Part shown: positions 20,614 through 62,246 of the stretch, in pieces
Layout: each line of letters opens with the position of its first letter
Numbering within the stretch: position 1 is the first letter of the stretch
Origin: a virus
Lineage: Duplodnaviria; Caudoviricetes
Direction: 5' to 3' (one strand)
Length of the DNA: 64,000 bases
Virus record (IMG/VR): IMGVR_UViG_3300021255_004000
Location: 96,001-160,000 of that record
Notes under the pieces: generated by a model
What the model saw: the letters and a program-made list of their open reading frames with translations, nothing else
Told to the model about the DNA's origin: nothing
The model's database searches: none
Position numbers and translations under genes: made by a program

Positions 20614-20997
20614 TTATTTTTTCGGCTTTACACGACCTTTATTAAAGGTGTCCTTAGCCGTGGTATAATATGTATAGGCTTGTGAGTCTTGGGTATAGGA
20701 ACTATCCTCAGTAAACCACAAAGCAAATATAACATATTTTTCTGTTTTCCATTCACCAGGTGCTTTGTCATTTCCTGGGTAGTACAACAGAAACAGGTAC
20801 CCATTGTCACCTGCCTTTGTTTCAAGCAGCTTTGCATTTGTTGAAAACTGCTGCGGAACAACCTGTTCTGTAACAGGTGCGGGCTTCTCAATTGGACTTT
20901 TGTTTTCCCAAGGGTAGTACTCTTTTGAGGGCTCACAGGAAACAAAAAGTCCAACAAGCAGTGTTGCAAAAAGCAACTTAATTGTCTTTGTCTTCAT
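20614..20997 (-). CDS. lipoprotein
   Basis: LFVSC lipobox. Confidence 0.7.
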   Translation of the reverse strand: MKTKTIKLLFATLLVGLFVSCEPSKEYYPWENKSPIEKPAPVTEQVVPQQFSTNAKLLETKAGDNGYLFLLYYPGNDKAPGEWKTEKYVIFALWFTEDSSYTQDSQAYTYYTTAKDTFNKGRVKPKK

Positions 20998-33537: not shown

Positions 33538-33908
33538 TGTTTATCTCCTTTCCAAAATCCAAGTTTTCTTAAAGTTTCTTCCATAGGAATATCATAATAA
33601 TACTTTTGCCAAGTATCATAAGCATCAAGCGGCTTGTCAGGTTTTGTGAATCTTGCGGATTCCCAGTCGATTGCTGCTTCTTCTTTGTTCGGAATATCAC
33701 GAAATGTTGAAATGCCATCAGAATATAAATGAGCGTGATGGCCTGAAAAAGTTCGATGCAGCTTTGTTGCGATATAATCACCAAACAAAGCAATGTTTAT
33801 CATTTTCCAAAAATCGTGAAAAGGGAAAGAAAGTCCCTTTTCTTTTGCAATTCTTTGAACTTCCTTTCGATGTTGAATAACATATTTGATGTCATCAATT
33901 CTTTTCAT
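33534..33908 (-). CDS. HD-like (DUF5662-type) protein
   Basis: H..HDFWK..HR...HH..IDWESARFTKPDKPL. Confidence 0.65.
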   Translation of the reverse strand: MKRIDDIKYVIQHRKEVQRIAKEKGLSFPFHDFWKMINIALFGDYIATKLHRTFSGHHAHLYSDGISTFRDIPNKEEAAIDWESARFTKPDKPLDAYDTWQKYYYDIPMEETLRKLGFWKGDKQ

Positions 33909-34128
33909 TTAATGCCTTCAGTATTTCTTCGTTCTGTTTAATAATGAGTTCCTGATTTTCAAGAATCTTTTGATCTTGATTAAAAAGAACAATTTGATTG
34001 TGATACACTGCGCCTCTGATAAGAGTGTTGCGATATTGGGATTCATCTTTTTCAGACCTGTATGTACAACTTGTAAACAATGCAAGTACTGCAACCAATG
34101 AAATAATCAAAATCTTTTTCATACGCAT
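33895..34128 (-). CDS. small lipoprotein with coiled coil
   Basis: LFTSC lipobox; NQ.KILENQELIIKQNEEILK. Confidence 0.7.
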   Translation of the reverse strand: MRMKKILIISLVAVLALFTSCTYRSEKDESQYRNTLIRGAVYHNQIVLFNQDQKILENQELIIKQNEEILKALNEKN

Positions 34129-34421: not shown

Positions 34422-34755
34422 TTTTAACCTTCCGTCCATATCCTGCTTTTGCCATTCGTTGCTTGTCAAAAACTGTCTTACTGTTCCAAGACTTCTCTTT
34501 CCAAGTAACAACCTTCCAATTTTTGAAATGTTCACAGTACTGAACAACCAAGTAATTGTATTCATCAAGAGCCACATTAACTGAGCCATCAGTGTTGAAA
34601 TATGCAACAAGTGGACTCTCAAACAACTGTTTTATATTAACAGGAACTCTTTCCTGAAGTCTTTCACGAGCATGCTGGGAAATGAAAAGATTGTCATAAA
34701 TCTCTTTCAATTCTGCGGAGGACAGTTCTTCTCCGCGATTTTTAATTGCAATCAT
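34390..34755 (-). CDS. hypothetical protein, possible RelE/DUF4258-like fold
   Basis: SQHARERLQER...VVTW. Confidence 0.55.
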   Translation of the reverse strand: MIAIKNRGEELSSAELKEIYDNLFISQHARERLQERVPVNIKQLFESPLVAYFNTDGSVNVALDEYNYLVVQYCEHFKNWKVVTWKEKSWNSKTVFDKQRMAKAGYGRKVKNEDKICVPKA

Positions 34756-34958
34756 TTCTTGCTCCTAAAGCGGTCATAATATTCCTTCTGCTTACGCTTA
34801 TGTCTTTTGAAACAAGCAATAATTGCGGCAACTGTTATGATGATTGCAAGAGCAATTCCTATTCCAAGTTGATTAGGATTAGCAGCGCCTTCAATAACGC
34901 ATCCAATTACCAAAGCAGTTGAAATTACACCTGCAAAATAAGGTATGATAAATCTCAT
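34752..34958 (-). CDS. small membrane protein
   Basis: Two TMs and basic tail. Confidence 0.65.
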   Translation of the reverse strand: MRFIIPYFAGVISTALVIGCVIEGAANPNQLGIGIALAIIITVAAIIACFKRHKRKQKEYYDRFRSKK

Positions 34959-35218
34959 TTATGTTTTGCCCTCCATAAGAACAGAGCACAAAGTCCTACA
35001 GAAACTGCGAACAGTGGCTCAGTTATAACCTGAACTGTTCTTGGTGTAAAGTTTTCAACACCAAAGTCCATTGCAATAAACAGAAACTTTAGAAATCCTA
35101 AAGCTCCCATAATGTAATTCACTACTTTTTGTGGTGACAACTTCTGTGTAAACCAAAAGATGTCAATCAAAGCCATTGCAAAAGCAAAAAAGAAATAAAC
35201 AATTTTCGCTACAAGCAT
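34955..35218 (-). CDS. membrane protein (3 TM)
   Basis: Hydrophobic segments, AAGGAG RBS. Confidence 0.65.
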   Translation of the reverse strand: MLVAKIVYFFFAFAMALIDIFWFTQKLSPQKVVNYIMGALGFLKFLFIAMDFGVENFTPRTVQVITEPLFAVSVGLCALFLWRAKHK

Positions 35219-35580
35219 TTCAGCTCCTTAAAGGTTGCAATCATTTTAGGAATGTTTCTCGCAAACCAATCAACCATTTCTTCATTTACAGCCCAAGCAT
35301 CACAAGCATTTGAACTGTCGCCAAGACCACTTTCATAAAGATATGCGTGTATCAATTCGTGACGAAGAACCCTTTTCTGATTGATATACTGTGACTGCAT
35401 ATCAAACGCAAGAGGGTCATCATTCATTTTGACATTCTCTATGATAATTTCACGAGCGGCATCATTTGTGATACCGTTCGCTTGTTCAAAAGCAGGGTCA
35501 TCATCGACATATTTGATTGTCCAAGTTGACCCAAGAATGTCAACTGTCTTTACATCATCAGATGTATTCTGTGTCGCCAT
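35209..35580 (-). CDS. HExxH metallopeptidase-like protein
   Basis: VLRHELIHA, NEEMVDW. Confidence 0.8.
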   Translation of the reverse strand: MATQNTSDDVKTVDILGSTWTIKYVDDDPAFEQANGITNDAAREIIIENVKMNDDPLAFDMQSQYINQKRVLRHELIHAYLYESGLGDSSNACDAWAVNEEMVDWFARNIPKMIATFKELKCL

Positions 35581-46109: not shown

Positions 46110-46170
46110 ATCAATTAGTCAAATGGTATGACTAATGCATTGACTAAATAATCTAAGGAGAATTATTTGT

Positions 46171-59740: not shown

Positions 59741-59769
59741 AATATAAAAGACACTCGTGCAAAGTTCAA
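59741..59769 (-). promoter_or_regulatory. early promoter copy 8
   Basis: TTGAAC-17-TATATT; -35 flanked by GTGCAAA/TTTGCAC inverted repeat. Confidence 0.85.
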
Positions 59770-59786
59770 TTTTTGCACTAAATAAT

Positions 59787-60260
59787 ATGAAAAAGTATCG
59801 AAAAAAAATCATCAGTCCTGATGAAATTGACGAAATGATTGATGAACAAGTAGATGACGCCTGCCGTTTGAAACATCTTGAGCCTGTGTTGACTTGTAGC
59901 GGAAAAATGTATCATCAGCAAGGCCATAAAGGTATGGCACACGGAATGAAGTTTGACTCTTATTGGGAGTTTGCATATTATCTTTATCAAACAGAAAAAG
60001 AAGGAAAAATCGTTGAGAGAAACACTTCTGAAAGTATCGAATACATTGATGACACTGGAAAGATTGCGAAGTTTTACCCAGACTTTATTGTATCTGGGCA
60101 ATATGTTGAAGTCAAAGGATGGCTAAGACCGAAAGACAGATGCAAAATGGACCAATGTTGGCAAGTGCAATTTGTCTTCGGCGATGATATTAAGCCAATG
60201 ATTGCTTGGTTAAATCAGCATCACAAGAATTGGAGAGATGAGTACATTCAGACATTGTAA
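59787..60260 (+). CDS. PD-(D/E)xK endonuclease (TnsA-N/head-completion-like)
   Basis: FDSYWE, FYPDF, YVEVKGW. Confidence 0.8.
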   Translation: MKKYRKKIISPDEIDEMIDEQVDDACRLKHLEPVLTCSGKMYHQQGHKGMAHGMKFDSYWEFAYYLYQTEKEGKIVERNTSESIEYIDDTGKIAKFYPDFIVSGQYVEVKGWLRPKDRCKMDQCWQVQFVFGDDIKPMIAWLNQHHKNWRDEYIQTL

Positions 60261-61396: not shown

Positions 61397-61451
61397 ATTT
61401 TGATACCTCGCAATATCTATATTAACTACTAATTGCTAATAAGAGGCAGAA

Positions 61452-62246
61452 ATGTGGAAATTAAGATCGATAAGAAGTTTTTTATTAAGCTTGGTTGTCT
61501 TGTTGTGTTTGGTGTCACCTGTTTTCTCGCAGGATGCTTATTCTTCAGATCTAGAGGAATTTCAGGAACTGGCGAACAGCTTGTCTCAGGAATCGTACTC
61601 GAACGAGATACAGCAGATAAGTTATTGGACGAACTTGGTATTGCAAGACCTGCAGGACAATCCGCAGTTGACGCTGGATACGCAGTCCTTAGAGGAGTAC
61701 AAGAACTTGGCAAGTCAAATGACGCAGCCCGCCTTTGTATCAGCGAAATTGAGCGAGAAGTTGATCTTACTCAACAAAACGCAGAAATTATCAAACAGTC
61801 TTTTGATGGAGTATCTGACGCAATCGACTATGGCTGGAGAATCGCAGAAGAACAAGCTGCAGCATATGAACGAATTGTTGAAACATTACAGCAATTTAAT
61901 AACGATACTGGAGAAGATGACGAAAAGTCAACTGCAGGACCTCGGGATAGTCAATGAACAGCTTGGCTTAATGCAACAAGAAACAGAAAGCTTGAAGATA
62001 CAAATTGAAGCAAACTTAAGATTAGCTACAAAAATGGCTGAAGAGATTGCGAAGTATCAAAATATGAAAAAGAGACTTCGTGCAACAGCTTATGCGGAAT
62101 TGGGAATTGGAATCCCTTGTCTTGTTATTGGATGTTTGCCAATTTGGACTCCTGAACAACAAAACATTAAAAACTTGTTCTTAGGAATTGGCGGAACTGC
62201 AACAGCTGCAGGTGGCTTTACATTTGCATTTACAATTACTTTTTAG
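61452..62246 (+). CDS. exported coiled-coil protein with hydrophobic C-terminus (spanin-like partner A)
   Basis: Signal peptide ..VFS/QD, heptad coiled coil, C-terminal hydrophobic segments ending FTFAFTITF. Confidence 0.7.
   Translation: MWKLRSIRSFLLSLVVLLCLVSPVFSQDAYSSDLEEFQELANSLSQESYSNEIQQISYWTNLVLQDLQDNPQLTLDTQSLEEYKNLASQMTQPAFVSAKLSEKLILLNKTQKLSNSLLMEYLTQSTMAGESQKNKLQHMNELLKHYSNLITILEKMTKSQLQDLGIVNEQLGLMQQETESLKIQIEANLRLATKMAEEIAKYQNMKKRLRATAYAELGIGIPCLVIGCLPIWTPEQQNIKNLFLGIGGTATAAGGFTFAFTITF
61454..61957 (+). CDS. embedded out-of-frame membrane-anchored coiled-coil protein (spanin-like partner B)
   Basis: GTG start overlapping ATG of partner A; N-terminal TM with LAGC; 167 sense codons open inside another gene. 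Confidence 0.6.
   Translation: MEIKIDKKFFIKLGCLVVFGVTCFLAGCLFFRSRGISGTGEQLVSGIVLERDTADKLLDELGIARPAGQSAVDAGYAVLRGVQELGKSNDAARLCISEIEREVDLTQQNAEIIKQSFDGVSDAIDYGWRIAEEQAAAYERIVETLQQFNNDTGEDDEKSTAGPRDSQ

Follow-up and report, generated by a model that had tools for sequence, protein, structure and literature searches.

The 64,000-nucleotide (nt) stretch of DNA considered here, referred to as the window, comprises positions 96,001 to 160,000 of the IMG/VR virus record IMGVR_UViG_3300021255_004000 (Duplodnaviria; Caudoviricetes). Towards its 3′ end lies a cassette of two genes, termed A and B, whose start codons overlap by one base within the sequence ATGTG, and which are read in different frames from the same strand behind a single Shine-Dalgarno (SD) sequence. 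Gene A opens at the ATG (61452) and is closed by a stop codon at 62244–62246, and gene B opens at the GTG (61454) and is closed at 61955–61957. A preliminary description of this DNA had reported an ACTAATT motif and an AAGAGG, followed by an ATG and a GTG that share one base and head frames of 264 and 167 codons, and all of these are present in the sequence. The features of the cassette are listed in Table 1, along with others in the window and in related loci that are taken up later in the text.

Table 1. Positions of the cassette, its parts and associated features. Coordinates are those of the window unless preceded by a locus number (L); aa, amino acids.
Feature	Position	Strand	Remarks
ACTAATT motif	61428..61434	+	17 nt 5′ of the ATG; candidate late-class promoter element
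Shine-Dalgarno sequence AAGAGG	61441..61446	+	sole SD for both starts; distance to start 13 (AUG) and 15 (GUG)
Overlapping starts ATGTG	61452..61456	+	ATG opens frame A, GTG opens frame B
Gene A, 264 aa	61452..62246	+	signal peptide, variable coiled coil, KSQxxD, C-terminal anchor
Signal peptide of A, residues 1–26	61452-61529	+	from sequence features of A
C-terminal anchor of A, residues 208–264	62073..62246	+	from family alignments
Gene B, 167 aa	61454..61957	+	+2 register of A; N-terminal anchor, then helical domain
Membrane anchor of B, residues 13–31	61490-61546	+	hydropathy peak
"A-prime", 109 aa	61917..62246	+	starts MTKSQLQD; gene-finder call that replaces full A in close relatives
Downstream polytopic membrane protein, 211 aa	62255..62890	+	own AGGAG 6 nt upstream; without known family
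Bidirectional terminator-like hairpin	62897..62917	.	8-bp stem, 6 GC pairs, T-runs on both strands
Lipoprotein candidate, 75 aa	33895-34122	-	canonical lipoprotein signal
Lipoprotein candidate, 127 aa	20614-20997	-	proline-rich after Cys; weak match to phrog_812 (Rz-like spanin), E 0.019
Lipoprotein candidate, 333 aa	19589-20590	-	phage lipoprotein PHROG match, E 7.5e-16
Two adjacent small holin-like membrane proteins	34752-35218	-	87 aa, ~3 hydrophobic segments; 68 aa, 2 segments and highly basic C-terminus
Inserted gene, 311–335 aa	L038:4064-4999, L039:2064-2999, L040:2064-2999, L043:1289-2296		between separated B and A
Conserved protein, 258–259 aa	L001:2576-3355, L015:3804-4580, L017:3965-4741, L021:1434-2210

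Forty-seven loci were collected, of which 28 possess the co-start arrangement and three more (L045–L047) are very distant relatives in which both frames are likewise open. At all 28, frame A is open (231–266 amino acids), frame B is open (139–167 amino acids), and B always occupies the +2 register of A. The overlapped module falls into three or more sequence types, between which alignment is difficult, and the last ~100 residues of A, which lie outside the overlap, are common to them. Across the overlap of the 28 loci, the B register holds 0 stops in 4341 codons. Further along A, beyond the overlap, this register holds 217 stops in 2767 codons, and the third forward register of the same DNA holds 572 in 4350, for a range of 0.078–0.131 stops per codon in the control registers. 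Codons were also redrawn at nine diverged loci, with one protein kept and its codons resampled from phage usage in 5000 trials. When A was kept, 12–19 stops appeared in the B register, which was open in 0 of 5000 trials at each of the nine loci. When B was kept, the A register acquired 5–7.6 stops and stayed open in no more than 0.0044 of trials (0 of 5000 at one locus). The double openness of the A and B registers is not a product of chance.

Patterns of substitution lead to the same genes. Outside the overlap, differences at positions 1, 2 and 3 of the codons of A (.145,.089 and.334) follow the usual single-gene pattern, whereas inside it they are.035,.100 and.166, and all five sequence groups agree. 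In other words, variation at the third position of A, which is the first of B, is halved, and the second position of A (third of B) is more variable than the first position of A (second of B). Conditional tests were made on 380 isolated single differences between nearest neighbours. Substitutions that alter both proteins make up 14% of those seen, compared to 50% expected. With the reservation that the pairs are not fully independent, 75% of B-altering changes spare A where 32% would be expected (p = 1.6e-37, selection on A), and 75% of A-altering changes spare B where 34% would be expected (p = 2.7e-33, selection on B). The effect is both large and symmetrical, and the two frames almost certainly encode proteins under selection. 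The preliminary description had looked to relatives for two open frames with constrained substitutions, and had regarded stops in one frame of close relatives as the sign of its being mistaken. Both frames are open and constrained at the 28 loci, and no such stops occur.

A and B also exist as separate genes. At L031, a 148-amino-acid B ends in a TAA that abuts the ATG of a 249-amino-acid A with its own signal peptide, and there is zero overlap between the two. The alternative registers at this locus contain 21 stops in the case of B and 28 in 150 codons in the case of A. A second separated form is found in three genomic contexts, where an inserted gene of 311–335 amino acids lies between B (148–150 amino acids) and A (241–243 amino acids). 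Hybrids of the overlapped and separated forms occur at L038–L044. In these, the A register is open over the first 90–95 codons and afterwards contains 6–8 stops, while a full A with a signal peptide is located downstream; the first ~90 codons of the hybrid B are of the dual-coded type and the remainder single-coded. The N-terminal domain of A in L038 weakly resembles that of the overlapped form, with E 1e-4, partly via the recombination border, and the N-terminal domain of A in L031 shows no similarity to the overlapped form. Whether overlapped or adjacent, each locus examined has exactly one intact A and one intact B.

The protein encoded by the inserted gene possesses a zinc ribbon, basic repeats and a nuclease-like C-terminus. 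Its C-terminal region resembles a 167-amino-acid open reading frame (ORF) in the window (59757–60260; E 1e-7), and that ORF in turn matches an endonuclease PHROG. From these features we infer a homing endonuclease, and no family match was obtained that would confirm the identity. The B and A halves that flank the inserted gene differ in sequence type from those of the recipient, and a hybrid pattern of this kind would be the expected outcome of co-conversion of flanking DNA during homing. Hybrids that resemble such products may represent one route between the overlapped and separated forms.

Two single-frame accounts of the locus can be weighed against these data. The gene-finder annotation of close relatives, which consists of B and a 109-amino-acid protein beginning at the ATG at 61917, could be correct, in which case the upstream part of frame A would be open yet untranslated. 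An A register that had no function there should carry several stops per locus given B, as the redrawn sequences do, yet none is found across an overlap of 139–167 B codons at 28 loci, whereas separated B genes do accumulate stops in that register (21 in L031, and 6–8 past the junction in the hybrids). Selection on A is evident within the overlap, and the signal peptide and cleavage site of A are conserved and are encoded anew wherever the overlap has been lost. Against this weight of evidence, the annotated status of the relatives, a GGAG located 3 nt 5′ of the ATG at 61917, and the many fragments of 100–130 amino acids of this kind in databases leave the annotation highly improbable as a description of the locus. 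The converse account, in which A is the sole gene and the openness of frame B follows from the amino acid and codon composition of A, has next to no likelihood. It draws on the greater length and stronger start codon of A, and on the ability of Gln-, Ser- and Leu-rich coiled coils to bias other frames, but any such bias fails to keep the B register open in the A-preserving redraw, and separated A genes hold 25–29 stops per 150 codons in that register. B is moreover under selection itself, has 698 homologues, and stands alone as a gene in L031 and L038–L044.

Two further possibilities were considered and rejected. The antisense register, at 61429–61713 on the minus strand of the window and at the same place in 13 loci, contains 0.011 stops per codon and has a median open run of 117 codons. 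A third gene on the opposite strand was rejected, as this register is broken ~2 times per locus and is, for that reason, likely a by-product of the double constraint. A frameshift fusion of the N-terminus of B to the C-terminus of A is unnecessary, since frame A is open and selected from its own start.

Database homologues number 132 for frame A, with 38–66% identity across its full length, and 698 for frame B, where they have already been called as genes. The 120 matches listed for B are 160–167 amino acids long, almost all of them 166–167, and share 75–97% identity with it. This gap in homologue numbers is an annotation artefact, given that gene finders call B together with a 109-amino-acid stump of A. 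Close relatives are annotated as having a 166–167-amino-acid gene and a 109-amino-acid gene that overlap by 41 nt, and an ORF listing reveals both full frames to be open there. Standard gene finders cannot call both genes, and with A split to a stump in close relatives, this same error recurs in hundreds of database entries.

A profile search with A against 1.84 billion representative proteins yielded only 71 clusters; the family is therefore narrow. The members furthest removed (E 5e-11 and 1.8e-5; L045–L047) still have an open B of 150–153 amino acids, N-terminally anchored and in the +2 register, and their start is ATGTG or TTGTG. Contigs of 285–404 kb, some of them in IMG/VR, are syntenic with the window or carry the cassette. 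Searches of Pfam, PHROGs and NCBIfam gave no above-threshold match for either protein of the cassette, for the downstream gene or for neighbouring genes. No relative of A was found in species-representative bacterial and archaeal genomes, GenBank phage records contained no relative at the DNA or protein level, and a protein atlas returned the proteins' own viral clusters and nothing else. The phages that carry the cassette form an uncultured clade of jumbo phages from rumen and gut.

The start region is conserved as well. ATGTG and an SD sequence are found in 23 of 23 distinct, otherwise unrelated upstream contexts. The aligned spacing to the AUG and GUG is 12/14 in seven contexts, 13/15 in three (the window type included), 14/16 in seven, and other in six. 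ATGTG itself is retained at most loci. Among start variants, L046 and L047 have TTGTG, and L015–L017 have two ATGs 11 nt apart, with the homologous start of B being an ATG. At L005, the B register becomes open just one codon upstream of the GTG, so that B cannot begin any further upstream at this locus.

Precedent for a shared start of this kind is available from Escherichia coli, where an AUGUG spaced 12/14 from the SD initiates translation in both frames, in cells as well as in vitro (Kohl et al. 2022, PMC9841429). At this spacing, AUG is stronger than GUG by 3.5-fold in vitro and 10-fold in vivo, and longer SD spacing favours AUG, with residual use of GUG (PMC9841429). The only natural precedents named in that work are Thermus rnpA-rpmH and the alternative peptides of 10–15 amino acids at pqiA and tamA (PMC9841429). 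By analogy, co-initiation is a plausible mechanism for the cassette, and both of its frames probably start at overlapping codons behind one SD. The preliminary description had proposed two envelope-type proteins translated from overlapping starts behind one SD, and the comparative data and the AUGUG precedent are in agreement with it. On dual coding and the shared start, and on these two points only, the explanation given here can be held with good confidence to be the best one.

As read from sequence, expression of the cassette would proceed along the following lines. One transcript, probably extending from ~61428 to the terminator at 62897–62917, would carry the single SD and the AUGUG. A 30S subunit held at the SD would place either the AUG of A or, two bases on, the GUG of B in its P site, and each initiation would commit the ribosome to one of two proteins from the same ~500 bases. 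The ratio of A to B would then be set by the spacing and by codon strength.

B is predicted to be bitopic, anchored in the membrane by its N-terminus and with its helical domain located outside the cytoplasm. Its 19-residue Kyte-Doolittle maximum is 2.44, at residues 13–31, and the sequence is predicted to be helical afterwards. Conserved features include a juxtamembrane GRFIRF-x-G-x-SG and, in the helical domain, a nearly invariant Cys95; the tail is acidic. An AlphaFold2 model of B is helical, with a predicted local distance difference test (pLDDT) score of 56. In the preliminary description, B was said to have a transmembrane segment or a LAGC lipobox. The LAGC is indeed found in the window's B, as is the hydropathy peak, but lipoboxes occur in 3 of 144 members and are not a feature of the family. 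The PHROG matched by most B variants (7 of 23) is phrog_739, "Rz-like spanin", which is a weak top match for four of them, in co-linear fashion, with E values from 1.3e-5 to 8e-3. The same variants also match generic Pfam families with a transmembrane segment plus coiled coil, such as DUF1664 and XhlA. The resemblance to phrog_739 would thus reflect shared architecture rather than proven homology. No spanin-family match was obtained for the window's own B, and a B profile found nothing among solved structures.

A appears to be exported via a cleavable Sec signal, after which its coiled coil would be held at a membrane by a C-terminal anchor that is hydrophobic and aromatic. The 19-residue Kyte-Doolittle maximum of A is 2.3, at residues 7–25, and an AxA-type (signal-peptidase I) site is present in 134 of 139 family members. 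A lipobox, strict or relaxed, is found in 0 of 139. The coiled coil that follows is variable, with S159 and D163 nearly invariant and a conserved KSQxxD motif. In order, the anchor consists of an RxR, a hydrophobic segment rich in Pro and Gly, a short polar loop, a segment rich in Gly, Thr and Ala, and the alternating aromatic FTFAFTITF; only the first of these segments reaches the hydropathy threshold of a helical transmembrane segment. The last residue is Phe in 136 of 139 members, and FTFAFTITF is the commonest ending. The cleavable signal and alternating, Phe-ending C-terminus noted at the outset in A are consequently family-wide, and the hydrophobic N-terminal segment proposed for both frames is likewise apparent from the hydropathy maxima, with helix predicted after it.

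Distant members of the A family have hairpin-like ends of the GG-HWLFRWW type with charged residues, and terminate in FKWW, FRWW or FKIW. Such a charged stretch fits strands better than a helix. The AlphaFold2 monomer of A (pLDDT 65) is all-helical, with helices at 165–228 and 234–252 that form a helical hairpin, and a pLDDT of 30–48 over the last 14 residues. The low-confidence model, having helices drawn there, gives no backing to an outer-membrane beta-signal at the end of A, and A matched no YadA-anchor or outer membrane protein family. Positions 107–199 of the A profile (~61770–62050 in the window) match the helical D1 region of FlgK (5xbj, E 6e-5; 9gsx, E 2.4e-4), which is a weak lead and may reflect coiled-coil composition. 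A fold search with the low-confidence models of A and B returned no match with an E value below 0.001.

The best description of A and B would be that of a conserved two-protein envelope module. Because exactly one intact A and one intact B are maintained at every locus, they are most likely a pair in the cell envelope, and there is a somewhat better than even prospect that they act together there. Co-variation of the A and B sequence types is uninformative in this regard, as the two share DNA. Several observations weigh against this picture and the lysis function that might be attached to it. The spacing of 13/15 in the window is strongly AUG-favouring in E. coli, with little use of GUG, so B is perhaps made at a low level or is reliant on host-specific features. 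The structure models are of low confidence for both proteins, and their partnership is deduced from co-encoding. As for a role as spanins, lipoboxes are absent from A and nearly so from the B family, and the other lipoprotein candidates at 20614–20997 and 33895–34122, as well as the holin-like proteins, are encoded far from the cassette.

A lytic role for the pair would take the form of a non-canonical two-component spanin, with B in the inner membrane and A in the outer membrane by means of a hairpin resembling a beta-signal, without lipid. The two would link the membranes across the periplasm and disrupt the outer one at lysis. The hallmark of spanins is a pair of overlapping or adjacent genes that encode coiled-coil proteins of the envelope (PMC6139136). 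B is built like an i-spanin, its periplasmic Cys is nearly invariant, and a late-type motif is situated 5′ of the cassette. The phrog_739 matches of the four diverged B variants point the same way, although these variants also match generic families, and the B of the window matches no spanin family. The ends of A are similarly divided in what they suggest: their terminal Phe, alternating aromatics and, in distant members, charged residues suit strands over a helix, but AlphaFold gives the anchor as a helical hairpin. In the absence of any lipobox in A, the lipoprotein subunit that defines a spanin is missing. Furthermore, no holin or endolysin adjoins the cassette in any of its varied contexts, and one of the other lipoprotein candidates has a weak Rz-like match of its own. 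On balance, a spanin of this kind is doubtful. A as a unimolecular spanin (T1 gp11 type, with a lipoprotein signal and C-terminal transmembrane segment) has the C-terminal anchor and no lipobox. Unlikely, too, is the full proposal of a new envelope-spanning lysis device, in which an Rz-like B and a beta-signal-anchored A would have their stoichiometry hard-wired by one AUGUG on fully overlapping genes.

A different envelope role, such as lysis timing or inhibition (holin-antiholin-like), superinfection exclusion, or remodelling of the periplasm, is a serious candidate that nonetheless falls short of an even chance. Under the structure model, both proteins could reside in the inner membrane, with the N-terminus of B and the C-terminal helical hairpin of A as anchors, although the positively charged RxR before the anchor of A, on the presumed periplasmic side, would be unusual for a helical inner-membrane hairpin. 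The cassette moves among unrelated genomic contexts in the manner of an accessory module, and in the window it probably shares a transcript with the gene of a polytopic membrane protein and adjoins a GGDEF-EAL gene. The weak FlgK match could be taken in the same sense, but it lies within a compositionally biased coiled coil, and no family match has been obtained for any role of this type.

Outside the cassette, the window consists of a dense block of genes at ~37% GC, mostly on the minus strand, including genes for proteins of 1567 and 1861 amino acids. The hairpin that follows the downstream gene closes both the cassette unit and a convergent GGDEF-EAL gene. The downstream protein of 211 amino acids follows the cassette only in its closest relatives (L009, L018, L038 and L039). 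In the close relative L002, its homologue is cut to 58 amino acids (L002:5799–5975), and the gene is accordingly dispensable for the cassette. The 11 ACTAATT copies in the window do not exceed the count expected by chance. Nine of the 11, including those of the two very large genes, lie 3–27 nt 5′ of the start of a same-strand ORF. Examples are at 46113, 50924, 56526, 58042, 58868 and 61137 on the minus strand and at 61428 on the plus strand. Several copies are a mere 3–4 nt before an ATG, suggestive of a class of promoters whose transcripts have very short leaders or none. The motif, whose function as a promoter is that of a candidate, is also found 5′ of the cassette in L002, L007, L012, L018, L035, L038 and L045.

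The holin-like pair in the window is adjoined by a 123-amino-acid protein with an HExxH motif (35209–35580), and none of the three has a PHROG lysis match. In four otherwise different contexts, a conserved protein of 258–259 amino acids is encoded no more than two genes away from the cassette. A sub-threshold match to Peptidase_C39_2 (E 0.0026), the only one obtained, makes it a possible cell-wall hydrolase. A flagellin gene is located 2.7 kb from the cassette in both L040 and L042.

Judging from the comparative evidence, the cassette is a well-supported and, in nature, rare example of two long genes being served by a single initiation site, and it is new as a combination of two known phenomena, namely embedded phage genes and ambiguous AUGUG initiation. 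It would give dual initiation at AUGUG a clear biological use, in the form of two long, selected proteins, and provides a system for studying how spacing sets their ratio. It is also an unusually clean model of overlapping genes, with 420–504 nt of dual-coded DNA, several types that diverge to ~30% identity, and natural separated controls. If the pair does act in lysis, the definition of spanins would widen beyond lipoproteins.

Among known systems, lambda Rz/Rz1 and other two-component spanins (Kongari et al. 2018, PMC6139136) share with the cassette the encoding of two envelope proteins in two frames of one stretch of phage DNA, one of the proteins having an N-terminal anchor and a periplasmic coiled coil. 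Spanin pairs may be embedded, overlapped or separated (PMC6139136), and overlapped and separated arrangements likewise exist within the present family. In Rz/Rz1-type pairs, however, the second gene begins ~0.4–0.5 of the way into the first, whereas here the starts coincide, with an overlap of 420–504 nt, and the longer protein (A) would be the outer-membrane subunit yet is no lipoprotein in any of the 139 members. Thermus rnpA-rpmH (AUGGAUG, PMC9841429) is similar in that two functional proteins are made in different frames from starts that lie within a few bases of each other and share one SD. Its AUGs are 4 nt apart and its nested gene encodes a small ribosomal protein, while in the phage cassette the codons overlap and both products are long membrane proteins. 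The AUGUG and GUGUG sites of E. coli (pqiA and tamA, PMC9841429) have the same motif and the same proposed competition between SD-positioned AUG and GUG. Their alternative frames encode peptides of 10–15 amino acids with unknown relevance, in contrast to a protein of 139–167 amino acids, known from sequence, that is under purifying selection across a phage clade. Finally, the dual-start holin and antiholin of lambda (S105/S107) are two membrane proteins of a phage late gene with a built-in ratio and starts a few bases apart. They are read in the same frame and differ by two residues, whereas A and B are read in different frames and are unrelated in sequence.

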